Part shown: positions 1,431 through 39,940 of the stretch, piece by piece
How the letters are laid out: every line of letters begins with the position of its first letter
Position numbering within the stretch: the first letter of the stretch is position 1
Position numbers and translations under genes: made by a program
Origin: an uncultured archaeon
GTDB lineage: Archaea > Thermoplasmatota > Penumbrarchaeia > JASLWR01
DNA length: 64,000 bases
Assembly: GCA_964342815.1 (NCBI GenBank)
Contig: CAYFHS010000012.1
Location: forward strand, 42,421-106,420
Direction: 5' to 3'
Notes under the pieces: model-generated
Seen by the model: only the letters and a program-made list of their open reading frames with translations
Database searches by the model: none
Told to the model about the DNA's origin: nothing

Positions 1431-4400
1431 TTATTCCTGGATGTGCTTAATACTCTCCTGAGCCAATCTCAGTGCTTCCTTGTAACGTTCCAGCCCGTAG
1501 GCGGTTCGCGCTTTCCTGAAATAATCCTGGGCCCGTTCATTATCAGTACCCTTTACAATCTCACCTGTGGCATAGAGTACCGTCTTTGCTCTCTGTTCGA
1601 GAAGAGTGTTCCTCTGGTCCTTGAGTTCTTTCAAACACGCCTGGGAAAGTTCGTTCGCGCTTTCAAGGAGACCTCCTGAGAGATAATCCGTGGCCTTTTT
1701 GATATTTTTCTGGATCTTGGTGGTATCTCCTCTCATCCCTTCGACCTCTTCCATTATCGCACTGCAGTTATCGAGAATCCTCCTCAGTTCATCCCGGAAA
1801 ATATCCTTTTCAAGGCCGCCCATGGCATTAATGATGAGGTTTTTAACCTCACCCGCTTTCTCCAATTCTCCCTCTTTAAGGAGAACCAGCAGCTTTTCCA
1901 GATCCCTTCTTGCGTTCAGAACCTCAGCTCCCTTCTCCTCGTATATATCCAGTTCTTTTCTAAGGGCTGTAGCCTCATCCTGCATTATCCGTACCCGGTT
2001 CATGTGAAGAAGCTCGTTAATCACTGATATTGCTTCGCGTATGTTATCATAGGCCAATGCCATGGCTTCCTTGAGGAACAACTTCCGGCTTTCTTCCATA
2101 AGAAGGGTGCCCTGGGAAATGTCGAGATCAATGGCCTCGGCTTTCTCCAATCCTCTCTCAGCCTCCTGGCGGCTGATCAAATATTTCTCGCTCATTATCT
2201 GCCAGTAACTATCCCGAGCGTCCTTCTCAGCTCTTTTGGCCACATTCATTGCGAATTTATACATCCCGGATTCAAACAGACGACCGGCCATATCCAATCT
2301 TTTCAAGTGAACGGCTCCGTCCATATCTCTGGCCTTTGATTGAATAACATTCGTTATCCTTCTAATCTCCTCATTGAACTTCACCCTCCGTCTGCTGTCG
2401 ATTTCCTTTTCAGCCAGATCGATTGCCTCTTCGCAGAGTCCCTGTATCTTCGAGTAATTCCTTTGTCTCTCCGCTTCCTGGGCCTTTATCAGGACTACCT
2501 GTACATCTTTCGCCTCTGAGAATTTTAGGCCCATCAGCCTCATTTTTTCTATAGCAGATGTAATAAAACGGCTCGCCAAGTCCTGTTCATGCCTCTTTAG
2601 GGCCATGTTCGCTCCGTCTTCGGCTCGAATAAAACATTTTTCCGCTTCCTTGAATCCCCCATTTTCAAGTGCTGCTTTTCCCTGAGCAAGCCAATGAAGC
2701 GCGCTGGTGGGGGTAAATTGTTTAGACTTAAGGGCGTTTACCTTGTAAGAAAGATCAAGATAATGGTCAATGTGGTTCTGTTTCGTTACTCTCTGTTCGA
2801 TCTTCTCGATCTGATCACCCAGAAGATTTACGTATCGAAGTCTTTCCACCCACTCCGTCCCGGGTGTATCACTAAATATGTTCAGGTATAATTTATAAAC
2901 ATCAACCCCTACGATACCCCTTTTGAGCAGCTTTTCCACTCCGCCCAACCTGTTGATACGGGCTTTTTGATCTTCAAGTCCTCGTCCGATCTCCGCTTCG
3001 ATAGTTTCGGTTATGAGATCCCGTATCTTTTCAAAATCCACGAAAGCACTGTCTTCTTCGGATCTGGGAACGGCTGGACCTATGCTCGGCAATCCATCCA
3101 GTTTCATTGTGTATTCCCGGATTCTCTCTTCCGGTAGATATTCGGAAACTCGGTCCAATAACCTTCTTACACTTTTTACATTCTTTTGAAACATTGCTTT
3201 TGTTTCTTCATCCTCCAACATTTTAAAGAACTTGCTTAGAGACAATATCGTTTGTGTCAGTTCCTCGGTTATTGGAATGGCAGAATCGTCCCGCAACAAT
3301 CTGAGTTTTTTCATCAGCTCCGTTTCATACCCCTGCCTTTCTCCTGTTGCTATCAATGAGTCTTCGAGTGAGAGAACAGCTTCGGATATATCTGCTGTTT
3401 TCTGCTTGCGGATATTCTGTGCCAGTTGAACTGCTTCCTCCATCAGTTTATAGGCTTTATCCAGCTCGCCGTTCTTAATTAATATTCGTCCTTGATCCAT
3501 CATATTTTTCGGTTCATCCTGGTCAATACCGTCGGCAGCAAGTTCGTCTATCTGCAGTTTTATCCGCTGGTATTTCTCATTCGCCATATTATTTTCATAT
3601 TCGCTCCGTTTCAAATTGAAAAGCTTAATAATTTCCTCGTATGATTCATTCGCCGCGTCGAACTTTCGCTCGATTAACAGTCCCTCAATCTTTTTCATTT
3701 CTTCCTCGAAATGATCCTTTTTTATTGGAAGATTGCTGACTGATTCCCTCAGAGCTTCGATCTTCGTCTGAAGTTCACCCATTACTGTCATCTCGTCGCA
3801 GGCACTTATAAATGATTTCAACTGGTGTGCGCACTTTCTGTGCTTTTCCTCAGCATAATTATCCTTGGCTTTATTCATCATGGATTCGAGGTGACTTATG
3901 TCGAAGGGGAGCTTTCGGATATCTTTCATCAACAATTCCGCCGTATACAAAAGTCCGTTGGCACTATCTTTGAAGAACTGGGCCCTCTTTTCTTTAGCCA
4001 AGGCAATACACTCGGTTCCCTTGGCCAAGCCTTTCTCCGTATCCCCACCATCATACATCTCCCTCGCCTCGGCCAATAGAGCCATGGGTTCTGTTACGTC
4101 GACACCTTCCATACCGTATTTCTTGAGAAGAGCTTCATTTCGTTCAAGATTGGTATCGAGGAGATGAAGCTTGAACGTTGTTTCCTGCTCCCGAGCGCTA
4201 TGAAGTGCGTGTCGTATATCATCCAGTAAGGAACGCTGCTCATCATCGGGTAATTCCGTACGGTCATCCAGGGTCTCCCTCAGCTCATTCAGCAATTGTA
4301 GAGATGAGGATATCTCAACTCCCTGTTCTTCGATGCCGCTGCATATATCAGATGTTTTTTCCAGTTCCTCCGATACAATTCTCAGATTGTGCCTGTTCTT

Positions 4401-7400
4401 AAGCTTAACAAGGGTCGTCGCCGCTTTTTTGACATAGATCTCTGCCTCGTCCAGAACACCTTTATCCACTAGGAGCTGGCTCATATCCATGAAGGATTTT
4501 TCCTCTTTCATCTCTATCTTGGATACGCCCATCTCCTTGAGATTATCATAAATGATCTTGTTTTTTATGATCATACCGTTTATCTTCGTTTTCAAGTAAT
4601 TGAACCTTGCAGCGGTGATGGTCTTCTTAGCGTTTTCCAGCAGATTGATCGATTTATCATAATCCTCTCTTTTGAATTCTCGTTTACCTTTATCGAACAA
4701 TGAGGAGCCTTCGGATACATCCACTCCGATGTTACGGGCTTCTTCCTGCAATGTTCTGATACTGTCTATGGACAGTAGAATTTCTTGGCGCCTCTTTTCG
4801 AAAGCTGCTTTCTCGATCCCCTTTTGAAACCATTCTATACTAGGTCCGTAGTGTTCTTTGTCAAGCAATTTATCCCCTTTCTGAATATAAACCATGAGAG
4901 GAGAGGTTGCGCCACCCAGTTCTTCGATCTCGGCTATAATATCTTCGAGCAGCCTTTTTGTGGAGATTGCTTTGCGTTTCATGTATTCCCGGCTTCGATC
5001 CCTTACATCGTCCTCGAACTGGACGATACGTGCCAATATCTCGGTTGAAACTTCTTCCTTTACGCCATTGTATAGTTCATTCAATCGGTTAAAATAATCC
5101 GTAAGATCAAAACCTCCTCCGGAGTCCTTTTCTATGAACTCCACCACCCCCTTGCTTCTTGAGAGACGATCCAAGGCGATTTCCAGGTCGTACTCCCTTT
5201 CCCTTTTCATCCCTTCTTTAATTGCCAGCTTACAGTATGCCTCCACCTCGATGAAATTGTTCTTCTTAAATAATTCAACTGCATCACGATAGAGGTCGCT
5301 CATCAGCTCCGTGTCAACGCCTTTGGCTAAAAGACGGTCCAATTCCTCCTTGACGCTGTCCAAAGAAGTTTGGGAATTTCCCAGCTTATGATCGAGCTCA
5401 AGGGAATCCCTTATCTTCTTCACTTTATCTATTATCCGGTATGTCTCATCAAAGATTCCTTTGGAAAGGTTGGAATTCGCACTCACCAGAAGAGTTTCCA
5501 TCTCCATGGTGTCAACCCCCTCTTCGCTTAGGCTACGCTTTTTCTGTTCCAGTTCATCCAAGAATACACGGACCTTACCACGGTGGAACTCGATCTCTAT
5601 CTCCCTGATATCTTTCTGCCTCTTCAATATTGCGGACCTTGCTTCGGAGAAGGAACCTTTGGATATCATCCGCTTTATTTTCAGTAATTTACCATCCATT
5701 CCCGTTACATCGGCACCTCGGTTAGCAAGTTCGAAAAGAGCGTCCTCCAATTCGTATAACTGGGTCAATAAGCGATTGGTCACGAAAAAATCCCTGGCGG
5801 ATTCAGCCTCGGTCCATCCTTTTTTCAAAAGTTCCGACGTGACATTGTATTCCTTCTGCTCAAGGTAATCTGTACTTTTATCAACTATCGAATACAGAGA
5901 AGAAACATCAACATCCTTTTTGGAAAATTTGTCCAGGAGAGCCTTGAATTCACCGATCTCTTTACGATAGAAATCATCCCTGTATGCATGGAATTTTTCA
6001 TTCATCTCATTATCGAGCTTTTCGAGGGTTTCTTTGGCATTATCGAAATCGGCCGCATCCAGCATAACTGCCACCTGGGACAGAACATCTTTTTCTTCTT
6101 TAAGCTCCATACCTTCATTTTCCAGTTCAGCGTGCCGGTCCATAAGAATTTGGCTTTTTTTCTGCAGTGTACCAAGTCTCCTTCTTACCTTTATCTTGCT
6201 AGACAATTCTTCGCCGAGCTCATATGCCTCTTTATACTTCTGTTCAGTGAAATATTCCTTCACGCGGTCCAGTTGTACCCGGAAGGAGGAGATGTCCTGG
6301 CCGACCTCAAGCAATTCGCGAAAGGCGATCTTCGTTTCCGATATGATATCCAAAGACCTTTCCTGGTAATAATATTCTCGCAACCTTGAAGATATCTCCA
6401 AGGCCTGATCCAGATCCTTTGAGGCTGTCGCCATCTCTTTCAATTCAATCTTCTTCTTTGCATCTTCAAGTATCATTTCCAGTTCAGCAGTATCTATGGA
6501 TGCTTCTTTCCACTTACCAATGTCCCTGAAAATCCCGTCATAGGTCTCTTTGAAAACCGAACTCTTAGTAAGTATATAACTGTTCTCCGCCTTCTTTCGT
6601 GCTTCCGTTAGAATGGCCTTGGCCTCTTCATAATTGCCTTTCTTGTGAGCATCGGCCGCGTCTTCCAGTGCACCCTTTACTTCATCAAGCTGGATTCCCT
6701 CGGTTTCAAGCTCATTATACCGATCTTGCATTTCCTTTAATTTTTCAGCGGATTGCCCCCCCAGATATTCCTGTTTCTTCTCCGTAATGGATTCCATTAT
6801 CTTGTTCATAATGGGAGCCAGGTCTCCAAAATCGTCATTTTCGACTTTTGTCTTTGCATCGTTCAGCCGTTCCTCCAATGAACTAATATCCACTCCGCCC
6901 CGCTGAAGCGCTTTGATCAGGGTATGATAGTCGAGTAACGTATCAAGGTACATCTTGCGAAAGAAATCCGTTTTCGTGTTCTTAGCTGAATCGAAAGCAT
7001 CCTTGACTATTTGAAAACCCGCCTCCATATCCTTACCCCGTATCTTGAGATCGGCCAATTGCAAAAGTTTCTCCGCCTTTATTACCTTCAATCCTTTTTC
7101 CTTCAATTCTGATATGATGGAATCAGTATCTCCCTTGATCTTGTCTATCTTCATGAGCAGGTGGGCTCCCCAGGTTTCGTTCAATAATTCTTCCGCGGTC
7201 CTTAATGCTTCATTAGCACTGTTGTAATCTCCACTTTGTAATATACTTCGTCCCTTGTTGAAGGAGAGCCATGCCTTGGAAACATCGACATCCTTCTTCG
7301 CTATTTCCTCAAGGCGTTTTTCGGTCTCGTCAAACTTCTTTTTCGACTCAGTAAGCTTGTGATGACTGATCATTTTTTCGGATAAATTTTTTACCTTTTC

Positions 7401-8777
7401 CGTAAGTTCGTCTATACGCCGGTAATCGTATTCCTTGAAGGCTTTCTGCGCTTCAGCGAGCATGTCCGTTACTTCTTTTAAGGGTAGGCCGAGTATTTTC
7501 AATTTCCTTATATCGACCTGAATTGATGAGATATCGCTGCTTCCCTTCTTGATTCTCATGTTATTTTTTTCCTTGAGAAGTTCGAGAGAGATATTCTCCA
7601 GCATATTCTCGCATTCCAAATATTTTTTCATGGCCGCATTCTGTGCCACACCTGCAAGCTTCGATTTCAACTCATCAAGTTCTAAACCGGACTTCTCCAG
7701 TTGTTCTATCTTCAGGGTATATTCTTCTATCTTTGAAAAAATCTTACCCTTATAGAACTTGTGCTTCACGTCCATAGCCGTATTGATAGCATCGTCCGAT
7801 CTCTCTATTGATTCGTCATATTTTTTTTCTTTGAAGAGGTTCTTTGCCATCCCGAGTTTTTCCAATGGTTCTGTGGACCCCTGAGCCGATTCTCCCATTT
7901 GATCAACAACATATTTGGCCCGGGCTAGTCGCTCCTGGGCTGCCTTGATCTTCACTCTGTCCTTAAGTCGAGAAATAATGATATAGCAGCTCGAAATAAT
8001 GTCCCGGGTGCCCACAATATCTCCGTTATCCAGGGCTTGTTTACCGTTCTGCAACCTTATATTGACCGCTTTTACTCCGGCACCTAATCTTTCAAGTTGT
8101 TCAACCTCGCTCTCAATGGATCCCAGTTCTTCAAGAAGAGACTGCATCTCACCGTATTTACTTTCCTCTGAGCATCTGTTCAATACTTCATATGCCATTT
8201 CTGTAGCCTTATCAAGTTCATCGTTCTCGGCTAATTCCCTACTTTTTTCAAGCATACCTTGCAGCCTGCCATCAGAATCATTAATGAATTTTTTATGGCT
8301 AGCAGTCTCCGCCCTGGTAATCAATCCCATAATCTTTTTCTTATCAATCCGTCTACGAACTTTTACAATACTACTAACACCAATTTCTAGAAATTTATTA
8401 GCTTCATCATAATGTCCCAGGATCAACTCATCCTCGCCTCTCGCAAGATATTCACGTACTTCAGCGACATCAATATTCTGGGAAAATGATCGGATGAAAT
8501 CTTTTATTTCAGCCACCTTGTTCCCAACTATTTGGATGATACCCTCGCTTTTCCTGTGTTCCCCTATTGTACAGGCATCGGTTGCCTTTGCGGTGGCTAA
8601 AGCGACGTTGCCCTTTGAAATCGCGACCCTAGCCTCTCCTAAAAGGTCATTTACTTCAGTGGCTTCGATGGAGAGGCTCTTCAATTCCCGGTACAGCTCT
8701 TCACCTAGCGAAAGCAGCTCCTCAGCTACTGTGACACCTTGACCGGTCCCATTGGTCCGATTGGTTCCAACTCCCAT
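1431..8777 (-). CDS. giant (2448 aa) cytoplasmic all-helical tandem-repeat protein, function unknown
   Basis: Uninterrupted 7.3-kb ORF with an ATG preceded by AAGGAGGG. No signal peptide, TM segment or ATPase motifs. E/K/L/A/D-rich helical composition built from 66-aa repeats. Confidence 0.9.
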   Translation of the reverse strand: MGVGTNRTNGTGQGVTVAEELLSLGEELYRELKSLSIEATEVNDLLGEARVAISKGNVALATAKATDACTIGEHRKSEGIIQIVGNKVAEIKDFIRSFSQNIDVAEVREYLARGEDELILGHYDEANKFLEIGVSSIVKVRRRIDKKKIMGLITRAETASHKKFINDSDGRLQGMLEKSRELAENDELDKATEMAYEVLNRCSEESKYGEMQSLLEELGSIESEVEQLERLGAGVKAVNIRLQNGKQALDNGDIVGTRDIISSCYIIISRLKDRVKIKAAQERLARAKYVVDQMGESAQGSTEPLEKLGMAKNLFKEKKYDESIERSDDAINTAMDVKHKFYKGKIFSKIEEYTLKIEQLEKSGLELDELKSKLAGVAQNAAMKKYLECENMLENISLELLKEKNNMRIKKGSSDISSIQVDIRKLKILGLPLKEVTDMLAEAQKAFKEYDYRRIDELTEKVKNLSEKMISHHKLTESKKKFDETEKRLEEIAKKDVDVSKAWLSFNKGRSILQSGDYNSANEALRTAEELLNETWGAHLLMKIDKIKGDTDSIISELKEKGLKVIKAEKLLQLADLKIRGKDMEAGFQIVKDAFDSAKNTKTDFFRKMYLDTLLDYHTLIKALQRGGVDISSLEERLNDAKTKVENDDFGDLAPIMNKIMESITEKKQEYLGGQSAEKLKEMQDRYNELETEGIQLDEVKGALEDAADAHKKGNYEEAKAILTEARKKAENSYILTKSSVFKETYDGIFRDIGKWKEASIDTAELEMILEDAKKKIELKEMATASKDLDQALEISSRLREYYYQERSLDIISETKIAFRELLEVGQDISSFRVQLDRVKEYFTEQKYKEAYELGEELSSKIKVRRRLGTLQKKSQILMDRHAELENEGMELKEEKDVLSQVAVMLDAADFDNAKETLEKLDNEMNEKFHAYRDDFYRKEIGEFKALLDKFSKKDVDVSSLYSIVDKSTDYLEQKEYNVTSELLKKGWTEAESARDFFVTNRLLTQLYELEDALFELANRGADVTGMDGKLLKIKRMISKGSFSEARSAILKRQKDIREIEIEFHRGKVRVFLDELEQKKRSLSEEGVDTMEMETLLVSANSNLSKGIFDETYRIIDKVKKIRDSLELDHKLGNSQTSLDSVKEELDRLLAKGVDTELMSDLYRDAVELFKKNNFIEVEAYCKLAIKEGMKREREYDLEIALDRLSRSKGVVEFIEKDSGGGFDLTDYFNRLNELYNGVKEEVSTEILARIVQFEDDVRDRSREYMKRKAISTKRLLEDIIAEIEELGGATSPLMVYIQKGDKLLDKEHYGPSIEWFQKGIEKAAFEKRRQEILLSIDSIRTLQEEARNIGVDVSEGSSLFDKGKREFKREDYDKSINLLENAKKTITAARFNYLKTKINGMIIKNKIIYDNLKEMGVSKIEMKEEKSFMDMSQLLVDKGVLDEAEIYVKKAATTLVKLKNRHNLRIVSEELEKTSDICSGIEEQGVEISSSLQLLNELRETLDDRTELPDDEQRSLLDDIRHALHSAREQETTFKLHLLDTNLERNEALLKKYGMEGVDVTEPMALLAEAREMYDGGDTEKGLAKGTECIALAKEKRAQFFKDSANGLLYTAELLMKDIRKLPFDISHLESMMNKAKDNYAEEKHRKCAHQLKSFISACDEMTVMGELQTKIEALRESVSNLPIKKDHFEEEMKKIEGLLIERKFDAANESYEEIIKLFNLKRSEYENNMANEKYQRIKLQIDELAADGIDQDEPKNMMDQGRILIKNGELDKAYKLMEEAVQLAQNIRKQKTADISEAVLSLEDSLIATGERQGYETELMKKLRLLRDDSAIPITEELTQTILSLSKFFKMLEDEETKAMFQKNVKSVRRLLDRVSEYLPEERIREYTMKLDGLPSIGPAVPRSEEDSAFVDFEKIRDLITETIEAEIGRGLEDQKARINRLGGVEKLLKRGIVGVDVYKLYLNIFSDTPGTEWVERLRYVNLLGDQIEKIEQRVTKQNHIDHYLDLSYKVNALKSKQFTPTSALHWLAQGKAALENGGFKEAEKCFIRAEDGANMALKRHEQDLASRFITSAIEKMRLMGLKFSEAKDVQVVLIKAQEAERQRNYSKIQGLCEEAIDLAEKEIDSRRRVKFNEEIRRITNVIQSKARDMDGAVHLKRLDMAGRLFESGMYKFAMNVAKRAEKDARDSYWQIMSEKYLISRQEAERGLEKAEAIDLDISQGTLLMEESRKLFLKEAMALAYDNIREAISVINELLHMNRVRIMQDEATALRKELDIYEEKGAEVLNARRDLEKLLVLLKEGELEKAGEVKNLIINAMGGLEKDIFRDELRRILDNCSAIMEEVEGMRGDTTKIQKNIKKATDYLSGGLLESANELSQACLKELKDQRNTLLEQRAKTVLYATGEIVKGTDNERAQDYFRKARTAYGLERYKEALRLAQESIKHIQE
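1434..8678 (-). repeat. about 37 tandem copies of a 66-residue protein repeat (G-[VIL]-[DE]-[VIL] ... LLxxA ... G-[DN]-[YF]-xx-A ... long helix)
   Basis: I registered the motif by hand at residues 34, 100, 166, 232, 298, 364, 430, 496, 562, 628, 694, 760, 826, 889, 955, 1021, 1087, 1153, ~1221, 1288, 1351, 1417 and 1486. Spacing is exactly 66 in 17 of 22 intervals and 63-69 in the rest. The pattern continues to the C-terminus (...ERYKEALRLAQESIKHIQE). Confidence 0.85.
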
Positions 8778-8830
8778 ATAGATTATCCCTCCTTGAATCC
8801 GATAGGATCCCTTTTTGGTCCGGATGAGAT

Positions 8831-8845
8831 TTATTTATATTAATT
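8831..8845 (-). promoter_or_regulatory. candidate TATA-like box for the giant repeat gene
   Basis: On the minus strand, TTAATATAAATAAAT lies about 55-68 nt upstream of the ATG at 8777, with the AAGGAGGG RBS in between. Position is the only evidence. Confidence 0.25.
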
Positions 8846-8989
8846 TCCTCCGCAAGGTCTGGGAGGTCCGCATCCCTTCTCGTGTACACCCATTAACTAT
8901 TTTTTATTTATTTCTTTGTATATGGGCATTTCTATAAAGATATTATTAGGAGTAATCGAGCATAATATCTTCCCACAAGGAGGAAGTGA

Positions 8990-11815
8990 CTATACCGAAA
9001 CAAACACTACGGATATTATCGTACAGAGCAATAGCCAAAAAGCGAAAGTGGGAAGCAGTCTCTTAATAAGAATAGATTCCTGGTTTTTCAGGCCGATTGC
9101 CGTTGCAATCACAACTGCGTTCATAGGAGATATCATCTCTCCGGCACTGGAACCAAGCACCTGCGCGGCAGCCACCTTTATCGTGGGAAGCCCCAATCTG
9201 GTCGCTGCTTCAATATGCAGTCCACCAAATAGGACATTGGAGGTGGTGGTGGAACCCGTCAGAGCGGATCCACTCATACCGATAATCGGAATAAAGAACA
9301 CGTATGCATCCCCAACCAGTTTTACAATATTGATAGCTATTGAAGATGTCATGTTAAAATATCTCATAATGTTGGCCATAGCAATGAATGCAACGATTGC
9401 CAGAAGGATCGGGGCGACATCCTTCGCAGTATTCAATAATGCCCGTTTTATCATTCTGTTAGGACGTATAGCATGGGCAAGAACGTCAATTCTCACCGTT
9501 TGCACATCCTCCCCACTCTTATCCACGGAATCGTCGGTAGAATCTTGAAAGTAATCCTCATCCAATTCGTCATCATCTTCGAAATCGAATTCCATATCAT
9601 CATCATCGTCCGATTCATCCCAATCCAGGTCATCATCATCATCATCGTCGAAAACAACCTCATAATCCCCGCCGTCGTTCATTAGTTTCCGTTTTTTCTT
9701 CTTCCGGGCCTCAAATGAACGCCTCCTCTTTTCTCGATTAGACTTCCTGTCTGTCATCGTCCCGGATTCATTTTCGGAGTCCTCGTCATTTGAATCATCA
9801 CCGTTTCCTTCCTCATCCCTATCTGTTGCAGTTTCCGATGTATCAATTTTCGGTTGTTTCTTTTTCTTCTTCTTTTTCTTCTTTTTCAATTCTTTTCCCC
9901 GTTCTCCGGACCTGGTTTTCTTGTCCGAGACGTCCTTCTCCCCGTCCTTGACCTTGGTACTTTTAATCTTCTCCGCTGTTTTCTTCATTTCCTCAGTCAA
10001 ACTGGTGGATATCTTTTTTGGTATAGGTTTCTCTTTTTCGCTACTTTTTTTCCTTGGGATTTCACCTATCTCCTGACCTTTCATCCCTCTCAGGATATTC
10101 ATTTCTTTCTCGGCATCTCCAAGATGTGATATCTCAGCGTTTGTCAGGTCCTCAATAAATGTACTTTCCATCTCGCTATCGGGAAAATATCTCGCAGCGA
10201 CTTTTACGAATAAAGGGACCGTTAAAGTTGTAATAAACAGAATGGTCCCGGGAGAATAGAAGGGAGAGAATTTCATCACCTTGTCGGCGGATATGGAACT
10301 GAAAGGCACCTCCAGGGTAATAATATCCATTGTAAGAAAATCATTTATCCACGGTACCAAGCGGGTTGCCAATAGTAAAAACACCATTAATACCATAGCG
10401 TAGAAATATGGTCTGGAAAATAGACCGAGACGAGGTTTAGATGACTTGTCTGCTTTAACTCGTTTTGATAAATCATGTTTTCCTGCCTTTTTCAGTATCT
10501 TCCGTTCCACAACATATCTTTCGTAAAGAATTACGAAGACTAACGTAGCACCACCAGCGATTATTGTGGGTAGTTCTGGGCCGGCAAAATACGCCACAAG
10601 TGCTTGCAAAGTCCCGTAAACTGCACCCATCCCCATTAGCAGTATGATATCTTCCTTGAGATCGGGATCACGGAAATCGGCAAGAGGACCCTGCTCTGTA
10701 TACACAATATTCATGATCAGCGGTGCAAAGATACAAAGAACAATCATGTAGATGCCGATCCATCCTGATATTGGTAATAGAGCGAGTCCAGTCACCTCCT
10801 TCAGTGCAATAATGCTAACACCCAATAAACCGAAGACCGAGGAGATGGAGTTTCCGAAAAGGCAGAGCACTCCCACACCTATGCGGTTGAAACCCAGAGA
10901 TACAAGCATGATTGCAGCTATCACGAAATTCGATCCACCCGGGGCCACGGCAGCCAGGATCAATGCAAAGCAGAATCCTATTAGCAGTACCTGATGTTGT
11001 TTATCTGTTGAAATCGATTTGAAATCGTTCTTCAATTGATCGATGGCACCCACTTTCTCCAGCATCTTTAAGAAGAAGAAAGCACCGAAGATGGCATAAA
11101 CGTAATCCAATCCACCCCAGAGAGCGCTGTAAGCGACAGTCCCGCCCATCTTATTCAGAGCTTCCCCGAACCCGAGTTCGTCCTTGAAGAATATAAGGGC
11201 TAGGATTATCGTTATAAACAACGCCGCTGGTGCCACGTACCTGGACGACAGTTTGAATACCAATATACCCGTGAAGACCACCACCAGAGGAATGAGTGCA
11301 ATCAGTGCGAGATACCAAGGGAAATCCGTCTCATCCTCTTCAACAGTTATTTTCGAGATATCCAGTATCATCACGTTATTCGTGAGGTCGGGATCACGAA
11401 CCGTCTCATTAGTAGTGGTATATTGTGAAATTCGAATTCTAACGCGTTTGATGCTGGTATCATTTAAAGTTATATCCGCATAGACCAAAGTATTGCTTGC
11501 TGTTAAGGACGTGTCTTCGCGATAGAACTCTTCCCAGAGTGCTTCATCGACCTGGTTGCCCAGGTCTATGAAAAGGGTTATCCGCGAAAAATTTTTAACT
11601 AGGGGATTCTGGATATTCACCGATATGTTAACATCGAATCGCGGATCGATGCTATCCATAATCTTTCCCTTCCTGACCGCCAATTTGTTTCCGTCCTGAG
11701 AAATACCGATTCCAGAGATTGACATATCGTTTTCCGATATTGCCATAGTGGTTGGGGCAATCGTCATGATCAAGGTGAAAAGGACGAATATAAATAACCA
11801 GAACTTTCCTTTCAT
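8990..11815 (-). CDS. L-lactate permease (LctP)-family transporter with an N-terminal extracellular domain and a large charged cytoplasmic insertion
   Basis: 941 aa with a signal-like N-terminus (MKGKFWLFIFVLFTLIMTIAPTTMA) followed by a beta-rich domain of about 140 aa. LctP-like TM core (…APGGSNFVIAAIMLVSLGF…; C-terminal …GMSGSALTGSTTTSNVLFGGLHIEAA…GSSAGEMISPMN…). Confidence 0.8.
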   Translation of the reverse strand: MKGKFWLFIFVLFTLIMTIAPTTMAISENDMSISGIGISQDGNKLAVRKGKIMDSIDPRFDVNISVNIQNPLVKNFSRITLFIDLGNQVDEALWEEFYREDTSLTASNTLVYADITLNDTSIKRVRIRISQYTTTNETVRDPDLTNNVMILDISKITVEEDETDFPWYLALIALIPLVVVFTGILVFKLSSRYVAPAALFITIILALIFFKDELGFGEALNKMGGTVAYSALWGGLDYVYAIFGAFFFLKMLEKVGAIDQLKNDFKSISTDKQHQVLLIGFCFALILAAVAPGGSNFVIAAIMLVSLGFNRIGVGVLCLFGNSISSVFGLLGVSIIALKEVTGLALLPISGWIGIYMIVLCIFAPLIMNIVYTEQGPLADFRDPDLKEDIILLMGMGAVYGTLQALVAYFAGPELPTIIAGGATLVFVILYERYVVERKILKKAGKHDLSKRVKADKSSKPRLGLFSRPYFYAMVLMVFLLLATRLVPWINDFLTMDIITLEVPFSSISADKVMKFSPFYSPGTILFITTLTVPLFVKVAARYFPDSEMESTFIEDLTNAEISHLGDAEKEMNILRGMKGQEIGEIPRKKSSEKEKPIPKKISTSLTEEMKKTAEKIKSTKVKDGEKDVSDKKTRSGERGKELKKKKKKKKKKQPKIDTSETATDRDEEGNGDDSNDEDSENESGTMTDRKSNREKRRRSFEARKKKKRKLMNDGGDYEVVFDDDDDDDLDWDESDDDDDMEFDFEDDDELDEDYFQDSTDDSVDKSGEDVQTVRIDVLAHAIRPNRMIKRALLNTAKDVAPILLAIVAFIAMANIMRYFNMTSSIAINIVKLVGDAYVFFIPIIGMSGSALTGSTTTSNVLFGGLHIEAATRLGLPTIKVAAAQVLGSSAGEMISPMNAVVIATAIGLKNQESILIKRLLPTFAFWLLLCTIISVVFVSV
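9446..10183 (-). other. low-complexity block-charged insertion of about 246 aa inside the permease (K/R block, K10 run, D/E block)
   Basis: Residues ~545-790 read ...KELKKKKKKKKKKQPK..., ...REKRRRSFEARKKKKRK..., ...VFDDDDDDDLDWDESDDDDDMEFDFEDDDELDEDY.... The segment sits between LctP-like TM segments. Confidence 0.8.
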
Positions 11816-13115: not shown

Positions 13116-13988
13116 TCAAAGCTCACCTTCGATTCCACACTCCGGACATTTCACAGGTAGTGGATCTTTACCCGTGTCCTCTACATTGAAACTAACCGAG
13201 CATCCGGGACACTCCACTTCGAAAAGTTTCTGGCTAACCTTCTTCTTAAAAGATATTTTACGCATTTCTTTCTCAACTTCCACGTATATATCTTCCGCGG
13301 CTTCCTCGCTGATGTTAAAATGTACCCTTAAAGCCTGCAGTATCTTTTCCTCACTGTCGCTTATGATACCGTCCGATAAGGCACCCCGAAGGGCATCCTT
13401 GTATGCTTCACGATTCTTGGGATCGTTGAATTTCGCCGAAGGAACCTCGAGAGCCCCCACATCGAGGCTTGAGCGCTGGATAACGCTGTCCTTGACATCG
13501 ATACTCCCTCCGGCATAATATTTTTCAACCTGGAACACAACAGTTTGTTTTTCGTCCGGTATCTTTTTTTCCTTTACTGGCTTGGATTTCAGCTCCTCCA
13601 GTCTCCTCCTCACTTCCTCTTCTTTCCGGTAATTATTTTTATAGCTTTTCAATCCCGTAAAGAACATAAGAATCCCAACACCAACGAATAAAAGCGGGAC
13701 TATCCTGAAAAGAAGTGGTATCTTTGCCTTGAACAAGACCGTGGTAATCCCCAGGCTGAGGATTGAAAAAATCACACCCACGATCATGACGCCAATTGCT
13801 TTGGAACGTTCGGCACTAGGAGCACATACTCTGCAGTACGTTTTTAGTGCCGGGGCGGCTTGGTGACCTTGTGACGTGCTTGCTCCACCTACCTGAACCT
13901 CCCTTTTGCAGACCATACAAATCGGCTTATCGCATTTTTCACAAGAAGTGATAGAAGGCTCGTCGGGGTGGAAAGCGCATGGTATCAT
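13116..13988 (-). CDS. membrane protein: N-terminal B-box-type zinc finger, 2-3 TM, TerB/DjlA-like helical segment, C-terminal zinc ribbon
   Basis: 290 aa. CAFHPDEPSITSCEKCDKPICMVC at the N-terminus, hydrophobic stretches IGVMIVGVIFSILSLGITTVLF and IVPLLFVGVGILMFF, then ...ALSDGIISDSEEKILQALRVHFNISEEAAEDIY... and C-terminal CPGC...CPEC. Confidence 0.6.
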   Translation of the reverse strand: MIPCAFHPDEPSITSCEKCDKPICMVCKREVQVGGASTSQGHQAAPALKTYCRVCAPSAERSKAIGVMIVGVIFSILSLGITTVLFKAKIPLLFRIVPLLFVGVGILMFFTGLKSYKNNYRKEEEVRRRLEELKSKPVKEKKIPDEKQTVVFQVEKYYAGGSIDVKDSVIQRSSLDVGALEVPSAKFNDPKNREAYKDALRGALSDGIISDSEEKILQALRVHFNISEEAAEDIYVEVEKEMRKISFKKKVSQKLFEVECPGCSVSFNVEDTGKDPLPVKCPECGIEGEL

Positions 13989-17962: not shown

Positions 17963-20900
17963 GTGTCCTCGATGTTAGAGTTTACCAACAGCTCTCTAAA
18001 AAAGGCCCTACTCGGGTTTGTCGTAGCCCTGCTATTTCTGATACCAATTATAATAGACGCTGAATCTCCGACATCCGGTGGAAAATTGCATGTACATATA
18101 GAAAACGTACAAGAAAATGACCCAATTTCGAATGTAAATGGCGAACCGACCAGCGGCATTACAGGAACCAGGAGTATATTGATCGAGGAGAGTTTCGAGA
18201 GCTACGATAATCTGGACAATACCAGCACCACTGCATTATTGTCCGATGGCAAGGCAATGCTATCGAGAACCCCGGCACCCGATAAAAAGACAACAATAAG
18301 CATTGACCTTGACTGGCTTTCGAATCCTGTCCATACTTATCCCTTTCATCCCAACGCCATGACCTATGATCCAATGATTCCATGTCTGGTTCTATCACTC
18401 CAGGGTCCAAAGGTACTGTACCGTGTAAATCTGGACAATGGAGACAAGCTCGATGAGATTCCAACCATAAGCAACAATAATAGCGGGATTGCGTACAACG
18501 GGGATTATTACTATTACTCTGTGGGTGCTGACTCCGATTCCAGTAAACCTGACGTATATAAATATCAAAAGGGCCAGGATAAGACCGCTGAATTTATTTC
18601 CAGTAAATCCAGCAAGGATGGATATCCCCTTACAGTGGTGGGCAATTATATTTACAGGGGAAAGGGCTATGAAGACGGAAGCAAGGATTGGGGGAAAATA
18701 AACCAGTTAGAAAAGGTGTCTTTGGCGGAACCAGACAAGGTATTGAGCACCTTCCAGCTGGGATTTACGGGGATGACCGATCTCGCTTTCGATGGCAAAT
18801 ACATCTGGGTGCTTGTTAACAGCTCTGATAAAGTCTCTTTATATCAATTTGATACGGATGGGAACAGCATTGGGACCTTCAAGGACTTTTATACTCCGAG
18901 AGCCGGGCTCAAACCATGCGGCCTTGCTTACGTTGATGGTACGGGGGATGAAGAAGATTCCCTGTATGTACTACTATACAAGGAGAGGGGCGAACCCGAT
19001 AACAGCCAATTGTTAAGGGTGAAGATGACAAGTCGTTATCAGTTAGAAGACACGATAATTTCGAAAACCTATGATGATTTCGAGGAACCATTATATGCAG
19101 TAAAATTCGAAGCTGTAACAACGACAACATCCTCAACCACTCTAGAATATTTCTATTCCAAAGAGAATGGAATAAATTGGGAGGAGGCAAATCTGAACGA
19201 ATGGATCGATTTCGAAGAACCGGTGAACAAACTTTCCTATAAGATAATATTGGGTACACGAAATCACGAAAAAACTCCTACATTATCCAACCTGAAAGTG
19301 CTGAAGAACGAGGTAGAAACTCCCGTTGCCAACTCCCCCACACATAATTTTTGGGCCAACACAGCGAACGTGAATTTCAAATGGACCTTCAATGATCCAA
19401 ACGAAGGTGACGCACAGGCGGCATTCGAGATTGAATTAGCTGAAAGTGACACGTTCAGCACGATTTACCGGGAACAGACCGTAACAAGCTTGGAAAGAAG
19501 CCATACTTTCACCGAAAATTTAAAAGACGGATTATTTTACTGGAGAGTTCGAACAAAGGACGATCACAATCAATGGAGCGCCTTTTCCGACCCATTCCTC
19601 GTCAATGTAAATTGGATATCTCCAGTGGGAAGTGTGATCATTAACAATGACAACCTTACCACCGATGACCGGAAAGTAGAATTGACCCTCGCTGCAGATG
19701 GTACCTACCCAGGCGTCATAGAGATGTATATCAGCAATAACCCCGCGGCTCCCAAAGACGGATCAGCATGGGAAATTTACGTGACAAGTTTCAACTGGAC
19801 CTTGGATAAGGAACTTGGTGAGAAAACAGTCCATGTCTGGTACCGTGACGAAAACGATCTGAAAAGTACTGTTGCAAAGGCCACCATCACTCTAGAAGAA
19901 AAAGCCGTCGATGTCGATACGGGAATTCTGGGTTGGGGAAAGATCGGAGCGGATTCAAAGGGGTATGGGGGCGTTGATATTTTTTACATCGTTCTCATCT
20001 TGGTTTTAATCGTTATCGTAGTAGTAGTGATCTTTGTAATAAAGAACAGAGGTGGAGGAGATTATTACGACGATGACTATGACGATGATGATGAAGAGGA
20101 GGAAGATGATCTGGATGTTCTGGAACAGATCCGTCGGAAGCGGAAGAAGGAAATGGGTGCGGAAATAAAGGAAGAGAAAGAGGACGTGATAGAGGAGGAA
20201 GAAGAGGAGGAAGAGAAATTCGAGAAAAAAGCCCACGGCCGCTATACCGACCTTTCAACGGAAGACGATTTTTCCATGGGCACCAGTCGTTACGGTGTTC
20301 CAGAAGAAGAAGAAAAAAAAGAAGAAAAGGAACTCAGCGGTCCGTATTCCATGAAATCATTGGAGGACGATTTCTCATTGGAACCCCAGAGATACGGGGG
20401 CCCTCCTTCCTTGGATGATTTCATGAAGAATATCGAGGACATGAGTGAAGAACCTCAAGCAGAAGAGAAAAAGTCCGCATCCATGCCCAAGGAAAAAGAA
20501 AAGACGCTCTCAAAAGAGGAAGCAAAGAAAGCCAGGGAACAGATAGAAATGCTGAAAAAACGCCGCCTGGACATTCTGGATTCATTGAGGTCAACTACAG
20601 ACAGCCGCAGACAGAAAGCACTTGAGCAGCAAATGGACGATATTCAGCAGCTGATTATTGGATTGAGAAAACATCTTCCCGCTGACGAAGAAGTGGACGA
20701 AGTCACTGAAGAGGAAGCCCCACCCACGGTAGAGGCGGAAAAGATTGAGGTAATGGATGTACCCAGCGATATAAAGGACCAGTTGAAAGAGGGAGCGAGA
20801 CGAGATAAAAAACGCGGGGTTGGCTTTGGATTTCTGGACCAAGAAGTAGCAGACACGGAAGAAAAAACCTCGCAACAACAACCGATATCTCCGGAAGTCC

Positions 20901-22069
20901 AAGCGAGGTTGGCACAGATACTCCAACAGTTACAGGTACTTCAACAGCAGCAGCTTGCGGTGCAGAACCAGATGCGGCAAACATCCGAACCCGGACAGCA
21001 GAGATTATTGAATCAACAGGTACAGGTGATGGCACAACAACAGCAGGCATTGCAGCAGGAAGCTCAAAGACTTCAACAACAGTCACAGCAAAAGTCACCC
21101 ACGGAGGAAAAGACCGCAATATCACCCGAAGTGGAAGCTAAACTGGCACAGATTCTTCAACAGCTGCAGGTCCTGGCTCAACAGAAAATGGCAGTACAGA
21201 ACCAGATGCGGCAGACTGCGGATCCTCAGATGCAGCAGACACTTAACCAGCAGTACCAGACCATAACGCAGCAACAACAGACATTGCAGCAGCAGGCGCA
21301 GTTACTTCAACAACAGGCTGCAGCGCTTCAACCTGAAGCAGCAGCACCACAGCCCGAACCGGCGGTAGCACCTTCGGACGTGGAGGCAAAGGCAAGACAG
21401 ATACTTCAGCAACTTCAGGCACTTGCTCAACAGCAGATAGCGATACAGAATCAGATGCGGCAGACCACAGACCCGGCGCAAAAACTGACATTGGCTCAGC
21501 AGGATCAAGCTTGCAAACAGCAGATGGAAGCTCTGAAAGCACAGGCTGCAGCGCTTCATCAGCAGTCTCAGTACCAACCACCGGCTCCTCCCCAGGAAGA
21601 GGCGCCGCCACCTGCTCCGACTCCCGAGATGGAGGCAAAGTTGAGACAGATACTAGGACAGCTACAGGCAATTCAGGAGCAGCAGGCAGTGGTACAAAAT
21701 CAACTTTCACAGACACAAGACCCGGGACAACAACAGGCTTTAAGTTCACATTATCAGTCACTTCAGCAGCAAGCTATGGCATTGAAACAGCAAGCGGAAG
21801 CAGTACAACAACAGGCAGCGGGAACCCCTGCACCACCAGCCCAAGCACCGGCTCCGCAACCTGCACCACAGAATGCACAGGCACAATATAACGCCGTGGC
21901 CCAACAGTACCAGACCCTGCAGCAGCAGAGTGCCGCCATCCAGCAGCAGCTTCAGCAGGCCAGGGATCCCGGGCAGCAGCAGGCCCTTATGCAGCAGTAT
22001 CAGGCCGTACAACAGCAGCTCGGCCCACTGGGCCAGCAGCTTCAACAGCTGCAGGCTGCACAACGATAG
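17963..22069 (+). CDS. bitopic giant membrane protein: extracellular beta-propeller-like and FN3-like domains, one TM, and a 674-aa cytoplasmic acidic + Q-rich repeat tail
   Basis: 1368 aa. The track start is GTG 17963, but ATG 17972 (MLEF...) has a better GAAGGTG spacer. Signal/anchor LLGFVVALLFLIPIII; mid-protein TM IVLILVLIVIVVVVIFVI (about nt 19973-20041); downstream DYYDDDYDDDDEEEEDD followed by the Q-rich repeats. Confidence 0.85.
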   Translation: MSSMLEFTNSSLKKALLGFVVALLFLIPIIIDAESPTSGGKLHVHIENVQENDPISNVNGEPTSGITGTRSILIEESFESYDNLDNTSTTALLSDGKAMLSRTPAPDKKTTISIDLDWLSNPVHTYPFHPNAMTYDPMIPCLVLSLQGPKVLYRVNLDNGDKLDEIPTISNNNSGIAYNGDYYYYSVGADSDSSKPDVYKYQKGQDKTAEFISSKSSKDGYPLTVVGNYIYRGKGYEDGSKDWGKINQLEKVSLAEPDKVLSTFQLGFTGMTDLAFDGKYIWVLVNSSDKVSLYQFDTDGNSIGTFKDFYTPRAGLKPCGLAYVDGTGDEEDSLYVLLYKERGEPDNSQLLRVKMTSRYQLEDTIISKTYDDFEEPLYAVKFEAVTTTTSSTTLEYFYSKENGINWEEANLNEWIDFEEPVNKLSYKIILGTRNHEKTPTLSNLKVLKNEVETPVANSPTHNFWANTANVNFKWTFNDPNEGDAQAAFEIELAESDTFSTIYREQTVTSLERSHTFTENLKDGLFYWRVRTKDDHNQWSAFSDPFLVNVNWISPVGSVIINNDNLTTDDRKVELTLAADGTYPGVIEMYISNNPAAPKDGSAWEIYVTSFNWTLDKELGEKTVHVWYRDENDLKSTVAKATITLEEKAVDVDTGILGWGKIGADSKGYGGVDIFYIVLILVLIVIVVVVIFVIKNRGGGDYYDDDYDDDDEEEEDDLDVLEQIRRKRKKEMGAEIKEEKEDVIEEEEEEEEKFEKKAHGRYTDLSTEDDFSMGTSRYGVPEEEEKKEEKELSGPYSMKSLEDDFSLEPQRYGGPPSLDDFMKNIEDMSEEPQAEEKKSASMPKEKEKTLSKEEAKKAREQIEMLKKRRLDILDSLRSTTDSRRQKALEQQMDDIQQLIIGLRKHLPADEEVDEVTEEEAPPTVEAEKIEVMDVPSDIKDQLKEGARRDKKRGVGFGFLDQEVADTEEKTSQQQPISPEVQARLAQILQQLQVLQQQQLAVQNQMRQTSEPGQQRLLNQQVQVMAQQQQALQQEAQRLQQQSQQKSPTEEKTAISPEVEAKLAQILQQLQVLAQQKMAVQNQMRQTADPQMQQTLNQQYQTITQQQQTLQQQAQLLQQQAAALQPEAAAPQPEPAVAPSDVEAKARQILQQLQALAQQQIAIQNQMRQTTDPAQKLTLAQQDQACKQQMEALKAQAAALHQQSQYQPPAPPQEEAPPPAPTPEMEAKLRQILGQLQAIQEQQAVVQNQLSQTQDPGQQQALSSHYQSLQQQAMALKQQAEAVQQQAAGTPAPPAQAPAPQPAPQNAQAQYNAVAQQYQTLQQQSAAIQQQLQQARDPGQQQALMQQYQAVQQQLGPLGQQLQQLQAAQR
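20520..22066 (+). repeat. 6 copies of a helix-turn-helix hairpin repeat of about 80 aa (one ancestral copy, then five Q-rich copies) separated by P/A/Q linkers
   Basis: The copies align on ...QILQQLQ[VA]L[AQ]QQ...[AV]QNQMRQT[STA][DE]P.QQ..L.QQ[YV]Q...QQQQ.LQQ.... A non-Q-rich copy (AREQIEMLKKRRLDILDSLRSTTDSRRQKALEQQMDDIQQLI) precedes them. Linkers include QPEAAAPQPEPAVAP and PPAPPQEEAPPPAPTP. Confidence 0.8.
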
Positions 22070-32053: not shown

Positions 32054-33916
32054 TCACTCACCCCAGTCAACCGCGCCTTCCACGATATAATCCTCGTCAA
32101 AGAACTCCTCCTGGGAACCTACGAAAACGTTGGTCTTTTCCTTTAGCTGAAACGCCCTTCCATCCATGGCCCGCATTCCCCTGGTGGCAAAGGTAAGTCG
32201 GTTCTGCCCGAGGTTCTGGAATCTAAGTTTCATTCTCTCGCTGTGGGAAGCCTGACCCTTTATTTCCGCTATCTTCCTGAAACCTTTCTGGTCCACCACT
32301 CCGGAGACCTTTAACATGATCTCTTTTATATGGGTATTCGAATTGTTCTTAATAGTTATCTCCGCAGGTACCCAATCCTCAACCCTTGAGGCCTCCTCCA
32401 GTAGATTAATATTAACGTCGATATCTATCTCCTTCATCTCCATTTCCCTGAAGAATTGTTCGATCTGACCAACTTCCCTTTTGACATCCATTGCTTTCCC
32501 TTTCTTGTAGGCATTCATAGCCTTCTCCAAATGGTCTGTAATATCCTTTGGAACCATGCAAACCTTTTCGAAGCTCTTCAACTTTTCCTTGAGAGCCTTG
32601 AGTTCGATGCCCCCTTCCCGCTTCTCCTGTTCCTTCCGAGAATGTCTCGCTCGGGCTCTGGATAATGCGGAATATGTGGCCGTGATGTATTCCTGTATCT
32701 TTTTGTAATCTTCCGCGGTCTTTGCTTGTTCCATCTTCTCGATGATCTTCTCCACCAGGTTCTCAGCATCCTCGATATCCACGCCCTTTGAGCGGTCCTG
32801 CTGAAGCTCGCCGTTTAGAGCCATGAGGGCATTTCTAACGTTGGCGTACATATTCTCCATATTGGAGCGCTGCCTCCAATCGATCTCGTCCTTTACAATA
32901 TCCAACTCGACACTGGACTGCCGGGCATATTCCTCGGCCATCTTGAAATCCGATGCCAAGAGCATGCGGTTGGCTTCCCCCAGTATCGATTCAGCTTGGT
33001 AAACGTTCACTCCCAGGTTCTTGGCGAGGTATAACCGGGAAGAAACTCCCTCAACCTTATTCAATGTCTTCTGGTAAGTCTTGACGTGGGATTCGATCAA
33101 GGGTCCAGCTTTTTGTGCGAGATCTATGGCTGTGAAGAAATCTGCATTGTAAACCGCATATTCCGCCTGAGATAGGGTTTCCTGGACGTTGGAAAAGATA
33201 ATATCCGGTTGGAGCGATATCTCGTAATAGGAATCCTGAATCAATTTATTGACGTATTCGGTCTGGGCTACATCTAGTAGTTTCGTAAAATTCTCCATTT
33301 CCTTGTAAGCGTTATTCAGGTCATTTGCCTTGATATGGACGTTTATAATTTCCAGTTTATCAGGCATTTCCGGATTTTCTATCTCAAGTTTTTTGCACTG
33401 CTCATACCTGCGTATCAATTCATCTAGATAGGTCGATATCTGAGAATATCTCTGATATATATCCTCAGTCAGAGTCCATGCCTGACTTGCGTATAACATA
33501 GCTGCCTCATGGTCGTGCAGTTTCATCTTGCTACGCAGTGCTGCCAGCAGCCTCAGGGGTTTTTTCATATCCATACCCAGCTCCGTATATTTCTTGATAT
33601 TAGCGAGGCTCTGTTCAACCGTTGCGATTATTTCCTGGACTTTCAGATCGATATTATGAGCAGTATTCTTTGCCTTATTCAGACGATTTCCCACCGCAAT
33701 GTAGTCCTTCATACCCCTGCAACGCGTGAACTGGCTCTTGGCGGACAACAATTCCTGTTTCGAAGCACTGACGTCCACACCGTCTGCGGCCAAAGACAAG
33801 AGATATGCATCCATCTCGACAAATTCGTTCTCCAGGTACTCCTTGAACTTTTTTGTCTTTGCAAGTATCTCCATAGTTTTCGTAACCTTTGCACGAAATT
33901 CATCGCTCTCATCCAT
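32054..33916 (-). CDS. cytoplasmic helical-repeat protein (paralog of the 66-aa repeat family) with a C-terminal CARDB-like Ig domain
   Basis: 620 aa with no signal peptide or TM. Seven repeats carry the same G-V-D-V ... LL..A ... [DN]-[YF]..A grammar (GVDVSASKQELLSAK, GMDMKKPLRLLAAL, GVNVYQAESILGEA, GVDIEDAENLVEKI) at spacings of 59-78 aa. The C-terminal beta domain reads ...VPAEITIKNNSNTHIKEIMLKVSG... and the protein ends in the acidic EEFFDEDYIVEGAVDWGE. Confidence 0.8.
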   Translation of the reverse strand: MDESDEFRAKVTKTMEILAKTKKFKEYLENEFVEMDAYLLSLAADGVDVSASKQELLSAKSQFTRCRGMKDYIAVGNRLNKAKNTAHNIDLKVQEIIATVEQSLANIKKYTELGMDMKKPLRLLAALRSKMKLHDHEAAMLYASQAWTLTEDIYQRYSQISTYLDELIRRYEQCKKLEIENPEMPDKLEIINVHIKANDLNNAYKEMENFTKLLDVAQTEYVNKLIQDSYYEISLQPDIIFSNVQETLSQAEYAVYNADFFTAIDLAQKAGPLIESHVKTYQKTLNKVEGVSSRLYLAKNLGVNVYQAESILGEANRMLLASDFKMAEEYARQSSVELDIVKDEIDWRQRSNMENMYANVRNALMALNGELQQDRSKGVDIEDAENLVEKIIEKMEQAKTAEDYKKIQEYITATYSALSRARARHSRKEQEKREGGIELKALKEKLKSFEKVCMVPKDITDHLEKAMNAYKKGKAMDVKREVGQIEQFFREMEMKEIDIDVNINLLEEASRVEDWVPAEITIKNNSNTHIKEIMLKVSGVVDQKGFRKIAEIKGQASHSERMKLRFQNLGQNRLTFATRGMRAMDGRAFQLKEKTNVFVGSQEEFFDEDYIVEGAVDWGE

Positions 33917-33929
33917 AAAAAAGCTCCCT

Positions 33930-39683: not shown

Positions 39684-39940
39684 ATGTACACCCAAAAAAT
39701 CTGGAAATGGTAGAGACCTATGAATACATGTTACAATGTTGCTGCTGTTTATCTACTATTATCAGACAATATTTCGATTCCAGTAATACAATCGGTATAT
39801 AAAATATCTGGTATATTATATATTAATTGTTGAACAAATTCTAAATCCATATCCCTTTTATTTTCTCGTTCATTATATACTTCAAAATTTTAGGGAAAGT
39901 GGATTTCAATGATGGGCCAATTTTTCAATTCAGCATTGCG

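Follow-up and report, generated by a model that had tools for sequence, protein, structure and literature searches.

The repeat gene and its 66-residue period

We analyzed a 64-kb stretch of DNA (hereafter, the window; contig CAYFHS010000012.1, positions 42,421 to 106,420) from an uncultured marine archaeon of the phylum Thermoplasmatota, focusing on a gene that encodes a repeat protein of 2448 aa and sits between the genes for a 941-aa LctP-family permease and HisRS. An initial annotation, made from the sequence alone, had described the protein as one array of about 37 strict 66-residue helical repeats. This period is borne out by the autocorrelation proposed there: with BLOSUM62 scoring, the value was highest at lag 66 (-0.264; shuffled sequences, mean -0.743, standard deviation 0.044; z = 10.9), with harmonics at lags 132, 198, 264, and 330 (z 8.7-6.3) and no peak at 33-34. 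In the control of 100 shuffles, the maximum over all lags was -0.548, and the value observed at lag 66 was never reached.

A unit hidden Markov model (HMM) detected 31 units when trained on the protein itself and 34 domains when built from four orthologues. The HMM unit starts (36, 101, 166, 232, 298, 364, 430 ... 826, 889, 955, 1021, 1087, 1153 in the N-terminal part, and further on 1219, 1288, 1351, 1420, 1486, 1558, 1624, 1684, 1750, then 2020-2403) fall within 1-3 residues of the motif starts previously counted by hand. The figure of about 37 units is fair, because AlphaFold2 (AF2) still predicts the alternation of short and long helices in the degenerate stretch 1816-2019.

The protein was also said to lack a signal peptide, transmembrane segment, Walker motifs, and globular end domains, and hydropathy, motif, and Pfam checks agree. 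No transmembrane segment was detected (maximum 19-residue Kyte-Doolittle mean, 1.03), nor any signal peptide, Walker A, or CxxC motif, and we infer that the protein is cytoplasmic. In the Pfam scan, matches to tetratricopeptide repeat (TPR) families were all sub-threshold, and the only other match, HEAT_Nup120, was marginal (30.0 bits against a 29-bit cutoff), with no stretch significant individually. Searches of NCBIfam and PADLOC gave no match for the protein, and Rfam gave none within the window. A check of the gene for tandem and dispersed DNA repeats found nothing but 20-30-mers at chance level and, near the start, a trivial 9-nt array; collapse or expansion of repeats during assembly is therefore no concern.

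Organization of the array

The following features were mapped on the gene and immediately upstream of it.

1431..8777, minus strand: gene of the 2448-aa repeat protein, with an ATG start and the stop codon at 1431-1433 (open reading frame (ORF) list and translation)
8673..8777, minus strand: candidate N-terminal cap, residues 1-35; a G/T/N-rich leader, then G-V-T-V and an 18-residue helix VAEELLSLGEELYRELKSL (sequence read against the unit model)
3333..8672, minus strand: regular array, residues 36-1815; 27 units ranging from 60 to 72 residues, 18 at exactly 66 (unit HMM, AF2, and 1401-unit profile)
2721..3332, minus strand: degenerate units, residues 1816-2019; 3 units, the least conserved among orthologues (28-32% identity), with short/long helix pairs still predicted
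3051..3095, minus strand: proline-rich loop, residues 1895-1909, LDGLPSIGPAVPRSE; 15 residues in place of one unit's 3-residue turn
1434..2720, minus strand: C-terminal units, residues 2020-2448; 7 units, the last two 62% identical among orthologues
8829-8846, minus strand: putative TATA-like box, A/T-rich AAATTAATATAAATAAAT (sequence reading only)
8787-8794, minus strand: putative Shine-Dalgarno (SD)-like element AAGGAGGG, ahead of the ATG at 8777 (sequence reading only)

Each regular unit comprises a loop of the form G-[VIL]-D-[VIL]-[ST], a 15-residue short helix, a G-D-[YF] turn, and a 43-residue long helix. Residues 1-35 may act as a cap: their helix looks like the second half of a long helix and would complete the first three-helix bundle. 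Many of residues 17-35 are invariant among four orthologues. At the opposite end, the last unit lacks the second half of its long helix; in the contact model described below, the array would thus end on a complete bundle. The proline-rich loop, in which G1900, P1904, S1906, and E1907 are invariant in the four orthologues, may be a docking or hinge site. The two upstream elements would provide the repeat gene with putative expression signals of its own within 8787..8846 on the minus strand.

Unit structure and packing

AF2 was applied to residues 430-825 with a 24-row alignment of nonoverlapping orthologous and paralogous six-unit windows. The resulting model (predicted local distance difference test (pLDDT) 90.6, predicted template modeling score 0.60) shows the same layout in every unit: helices of 15 and 43 residues, separated by a 3-residue turn and followed by a 5-residue loop. 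A second model, of residues 1684-2085, has a pLDDT of 87.9, with a dip to 61-77 around residues 1814-1850; its input alignment held paralogous windows aligned in register, which may favor regularity. The units had been thought to consist of three helices each; the AF2 models give two (15 and 43 residues), but the cross-section does contain three, since every 43-residue helix extends through two bundles in succession.

The packing of successive units was addressed by mean-field direct coupling analysis of 851 distinct two-unit windows, spaced at exactly 66 residues and drawn from 149 relatives (Meff 843). Three sets of couplings emerged. The short helix pairs in an antiparallel manner with the first part of its own long helix (13-29, 17-25, 14-33, 7-40); the C-terminal part of the long helix pairs, also antiparallel, with the next short helix (A64-B8, the strongest at 2.39, A57-B15, A60-B8); and the long helix runs parallel to the next long helix with an offset of 18-26 residues, on average ~21 (A52-B34, A52-B30, A63-B41, A45-B24). 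Nine inter-unit couplings exceeded 1.0, compared to 0 in three partner-scrambled controls, where none was above 0.88. Consequently, each long helix is shared by two successive three-helix bundles. In the profile of 1401 units, the hydrophobic seam of the long helix is unbroken (positions 23, 26, 30, 33, 37, 40, 44, 49, 53, 56, 60, 63), and its spacing becomes irregular near positions 44-53, where the helix crosses between bundles, in agreement with the two-bundle model.

A continuous, staggered three-helix rod with spectrin-like topology is thus well supported by prediction and covariation. On the earlier question of whether the units would stack as a rod or a superhelix, both approaches predict a rod, rather than a compact solenoid. 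With an inferred rise of ~21 residues (~3 nm) per unit, the 37 units would extend over ~100-135 nm if the rod is straight.

The unit is related to a known repeat over the first half of its length. In a search of PDB sequences with a 128-unit profile, positions 2-35 aligned with consensus TPR proteins (per-repeat i-E values of 0.008-1; summed E for CTPR down to 1e-72) and with the natural TPR2A domain of HOP (E 1e-6 to 5e-8). These positions thus form a TPR-like hairpin. At the same time, the Pfam gathering cut-offs were missed for both TPR_2 (PF07719; 22.6 vs 27 bits) and TPR_12 (PF13424; 23.5 vs 30.1 bits), and matches of the 128 single units were weak and sub-threshold (ArnB_C in 8, TPR_2 in 7, TPR_12 in 6, and SbsC_spectrin-like in 3). 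The initial annotation recognized no named family in the repeat; this needs amending for the first 34 residues, which match the TPR consensus, but stands insofar as the unit neither reaches the Pfam thresholds for TPRs nor packs as TPRs do.

Conservation among orthologues

Full-length relatives span a wide range of divergence, from 80% identity (MDP6155064.1, an orthologue from a Thermoplasmatota metagenome-assembled genome (MAG), and likewise L004 and L006) through 72.5% (P0191) and 43-46% (P0001-P0003 and L005) to 25.5% (P0016). The orthologues are 2441-2448 aa long and were found in independent ENA, JGI, and NCBI assemblies; a scan of metagenome contigs added one extra locus, 80% identical. 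A word-indexed search with the full protein returned 4 matches only, low-complexity words saturating the candidate list, and the same kind of search with the alignment of the 66-residue unit returned none.

Among orthologues with at least 43% identity, the internal gaps amount to two single residues, all other length differences being of a few residues at the termini. Even the 25%-identical relative aligns in a single high-scoring segment pair over the last ~2240 residues, with two indels. Such extreme intolerance of indels fits a continuous helical rod, because any indel would break the helical phase.

Units within the protein are on average only 13.6% identical to each other (maximum 27%), whereas orthologous units are 26-68% identical, indicating that the array is ancient and that each unit has its own identity. 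The ratio of nonsynonymous to synonymous substitution rates (dN/dS) relative to the 80% orthologue is ~0.10 (dN 0.114, dS 1.12), similar to that of the adjacent HisRS, ~0.13. Across four orthologues, identity reaches 60% at core positions and 43% at surface positions. It had been proposed that the array is old and its length under selection. The units are indeed diverged and ancient and the length is maintained nearly residue for residue, but selection may be only part of the cause: the constant number of units may partly result from the absence of DNA homology that could drive unequal recombination.

A wider family of archaeal giants

In an exhaustive search of 1.84 billion cluster representatives, the unit profile matched 1634 of them at E<=1e-3; 343 passed E<=1e-10, and 101 passed E<=1e-30. 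Most were matched many times over positions 1-65. The survey with a repeat HMM suggested in the initial annotation thus uncovered a large family, with copy numbers from a few to ~113 units. The period is either 66 residues or alternates between 62 and 64; 7 to more than 80 unit copies were detected in the examples cited here, the smallest members having a few units. The largest members, P0010 (7686 aa) and P0011 (MDP6154826.1; 7274 aa), have 79-83 detected units, or ~113 judging by length, and carry a C-terminal zinc ribbon after ~110 units of 66 residues. Their rods are predicted to measure ~0.35 micrometre, approaching the cell diameter. The MAG with the 80% orthologue also encodes P0011 (locus tags QF682_01650 and QF682_02875).

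Nearly all named members are annotated as hypothetical proteins and originate from MAGs of Thermoplasmatota, Thermoplasmata, or Methanomassiliicoccales, in line with the archaeal origin assumed at the outset; only a few short fragments were binned elsewhere. The JGI label "TPR repeat protein" is attached to one fragment of the orthologue cluster and to one other family member. We found no description of the 66-residue unit family in the literature, including a study of ESCRT evolution (PMC10936438).

Some relatives combine the units with other modules, namely, a CARDB-like sandwich with Prok-RING_1, zinc ribbons, a CHAT/C25 protease, DUF5915, or an ectodomain and transmembrane segment. Thus, P0004/P0021 (~1500 aa) carry Prok-RING_1, TET91790.1 (1963 aa) carries DUF5915, and P0080 and P0183 join an ectodomain, a transmembrane segment, and the units in a single chain. 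The 2448-aa protein, by contrast, is a bare array devoid of RING, zinc-ribbon, CARDB-like, CHAT, DUF5915, and transmembrane modules, and its 37-unit, ~2448-aa format is confined to its own orthologue group. In P0031, P0074, P0112, and P0116, the array is followed by a recurrent C-terminal module of 580-650 residues, with a CARDB-like sandwich and DUF5915, which is otherwise the C-terminal domain of archaeal/eukaryotic-type IleRS. A further region of this module has the look of a Roadblock/LC7-type domain by eye, which Pfam did not confirm.

A second family member next to a surface protein

The window contains a second member of the family, encoded by an ORF at 32054..33916 on the minus strand. 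This 620-aa protein has ~7-8 units and a CARDB-like C-terminal beta-sandwich, opens with a full 45-residue long helix, and has no Pfam match; an identical protein, P0203, is found on contigs up to 217 kb. The ORF begins 13 nt downstream of one for a 1921-aa surface protein (33930-39695, minus strand), behind an SD-like GGGAG (junction 33917-33932). The surface protein has a signal anchor, PA14, Big_9, and CARDB domains, and a transmembrane segment at residues 1854-1872, followed by a 49-residue cytoplasmic tail (RKRRRKK...GKGVGVQEAENMLEDIENEFRIKLK) that ends in what reads as half a unit, with the loop and the short helix (GKGVGVQEAENMLEDIENEF...).

Together, the half unit of the tail and the N-terminal long helix of the 620-aa protein make up approximately one unit. 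The gene pair and the tail motif are maintained in two further lineages, L007 and L009, at 62-65% identity, with different flanking genes. A frameshift fusion of the two ORFs was considered and rejected, given a second in-frame stop, the GGGAG before the ATG, and the preservation of the split in relatives. The pair may represent a split-unit docking module, and its organization suggests that rods of the repeat family may be attached to membrane proteins through in-trans completion of a split unit.

Neighborhood of the repeat gene

All related contigs preserve the gene order of the ~20-kb block that runs from a 1368-aa ORF to HisRS, and an operon link of the repeat gene with the LctP-like permease or HisRS was rejected on these grounds. 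The permease (8990-11815, minus strand; 941 aa) is unusual: it has an N-terminal signal/transmembrane segment and an extracytoplasmic segment of ~150 residues, and the transporter itself is interrupted by an insertion of ~230 residues (~residues 570-800) of extremely low complexity, Lys-rich and then Asp/Glu-rich. Its orthologues vary in length (945-989 aa), and the unit HMM found no unit motif in it.

Other proteins of the window also deserve mention. A 290-aa protein (13116-13988, minus strand), 58-78% identical in related contigs, has a weak, below-threshold N-terminal match to a B-box-type zinc finger (E 2.8e-4); B-box-like fingers are uncommon in archaea. The ORFs at 59857-63732 (minus strand; 1291 aa) and 17963-22069 (plus strand; 1368 aa), with N-terminal signal/transmembrane segments and one marginal Pfam match or none, are probably surface proteins. 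The 1368-aa ORF displays a weak 83-residue periodicity.

Possible functions

Collectively, our results are best explained if the 2448-aa protein is a cytoplasmic rod of fixed length, made of 37 helical hairpins that would derive from TPRs, each with its second helix lengthened to 43 residues. The first half of each long helix would form a bundle with the short helix of the same unit and the end of the long helix before it, and the second half would continue into the next bundle. Such a rod, stiff and of defined length, could serve as a spacer, strut, or scaffold, with partners docking on 37 non-equivalent, individually conserved unit surfaces, on the conserved ends, and on the one conserved proline-rich loop. 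A structural or scaffolding role is, in our judgment, the most likely one, and we hold it with about even confidence. The occurrence of like units in relatives with RING, zinc-ribbon, CHAT, or DUF5915 modules or with membrane anchors is as expected of a spacer or scaffold element.

Several observations weigh against this interpretation. The protein has no effector or anchoring domain. A Foldseek search of the PDB with the six-unit model returned no significant analogue (best E 0.36), the faint resemblances being to BibA (template modeling (TM) score 0.25-0.34) and EzrA (TM score 0.21), although all-helical elongated queries are hard for this method. The straightness and length of the rod are deduced from contacts, helical phase constraints alone would also result in strict conservation of length, and gene adjacency is uninformative with respect to function, since the whole region is collinear. 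Moreover, the distant members P0109 and P0071 appear to carry their units extracellularly, and hence the family is not uniformly cytoplasmic.

Some of the same evidence could be accounted for by a multivalent interaction platform, an assembly line or signaling hub on which each unit recruits its specific client from an ordered set of up to 37 partners and the rod shape is incidental. The TPR-like hairpin signature, the excess of orthologous (26-68%) over paralogous (13.6%) unit identity, the 43% conservation of surface positions, and the conserved proline-rich loop are all consistent with this possibility. Yet in the inferred packing the stagger of the long helices leaves no concave groove of the kind in which TPR solenoids bind ligands; the gene has no linked partner genes; and near-absolute indel intolerance over 2448 residues better suits a geometric constraint than independent binding modules. 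We regard such a platform as possible but rather unlikely. A membrane-proximal, cortical skeleton analogous to that of spectrin, tethered by completion of split units in trans or by lateral association with anchored paralogues, seems more doubtful still. The idea draws on the 620-aa member, which is translationally coupled to the PA14/CARDB surface protein whose tail ends in a half-unit, on the persistence of this pair and tail motif in three lineages with differing flanks, and on P0080 and P0183, in which ectodomain, transmembrane segment, and units form one chain. The 2448-aa giant, however, has ends that look capped and neither an anchor nor a half-unit partner nearby, its LctP-like neighbor lacks the unit motif, and its link to such a skeleton is by family analogy only.

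That the protein is an ordinary large TPR protein forming a canonical alpha-solenoid superhelix appears very improbable. Positions 2-35 of the unit do match consensus TPRs (CTPR, HOP TPR2A), Pfam TPR_2 and TPR_12 give weak matches, and two family sequences bear the TPR label, but the autocorrelation peaks at 66 and not at 33-34, all Pfam TPR matches lie below the gathering cut-offs, helix B extends over 43 residues, the covariation between long helices is offset by ~21 residues rather than in register, and Foldseek found no TPR or solenoid match. Finally, an assembly artefact, a concern raised by the initial annotation, or a non-functional ORF has a negligible probability: no supporting point was found, there are no DNA repeats to collapse or expand, the orthologues (2441-2448 aa) come from independent ENA, JGI, and NCBI assemblies, and the conservation data, with a dN/dS of ~0.10, refute it.

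If the model of a staggered, fixed-length rod is right, it reveals an undescribed way to build a long rigid rod, from a TPR hairpin with a doubled, staggered second helix that bridges two bundles. With its near indel-free conservation, the array of 2448 residues would be an attractive candidate for a "molecular ruler", and the architecture may be of interest to protein designers as a length-programmable rod. The family as a whole is a sizeable set of unannotated giants, some of them among the largest archaeal ORFs on record. Thermoplasmatota are a globally abundant archaeal phylum, and many of them lack a rigid wall; under the same model, the family members would be candidates for the long-suspected cytoskeleton or cortex of wall-less Thermoplasmatota. 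It is conceivable, if a long shot, that these archaea use fixed-length cytoplasmic rods, anchored via in-trans split units, as a spectrin-analogous membrane skeleton or cell-size ruler, which, if true, would mean that archaea had independently evolved a spectrin-type cytoskeleton from TPR hairpins.

Comparison with known repeat systems

The comparison with Pfam and PDB families that the initial annotation had called for gave a mixed outcome, with a TPR-like hairpin recovered but no sequence match to MIT or spectrin and a TM score of only 0.21 for EzrA. With TPRs (Pfam clan CL0020), the unit shares the inter-repeat "L-D-P"-like loop, corresponding to its G-[VIL]-D-[VIL], the G-D-Y turn, the small residues at the helix-helix interface (A14, A26, and A33 of the unit), and the contacts within the hairpin. 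It differs in the period (66 vs 34 residues), in the absence of Pro32, at which helix B of TPRs stops whereas that of the unit runs for 43 residues, and in the stagger of ~21 residues between consecutive units, as opposed to the in-register stacking of TPRs. MIT (PF04212) and ArnB_C (PF18677) are likewise TPR-like three-helix arrangements, but constitute single domains rather than long arrays; MIT matched neither the whole protein nor single units, and ArnB_C did so only sub-threshold (best E 0.0027) in a minority of units.

The rods of spectrin (PF00435), EzrA (PDB 4uxv), and SbsC resemble the array, by prediction and covariation, in their up-down-up three-helix bundles, with a helix running into the next bundle. 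Spectrin-type rods also have a strict repeat length and a similar number of residues per length, ~2 residues per Angstrom. Nevertheless, the spectrin repeat is 106 residues long rather than 66, and PF00435 gave no match to the whole protein at E<=1 or to single units at E<=0.1. The 2448-aa protein has none of the CH, EF-hand, or PH end domains of spectrin, and both of its ends look capped, without the partial repeats that mediate head-to-tail assembly; such assembly is unlikely here, as both ends read as complete bundles. The 2448-aa protein is thus TPR-derived, yet spectrin-like in topology, and belongs to an unannotated family of archaeal giants.

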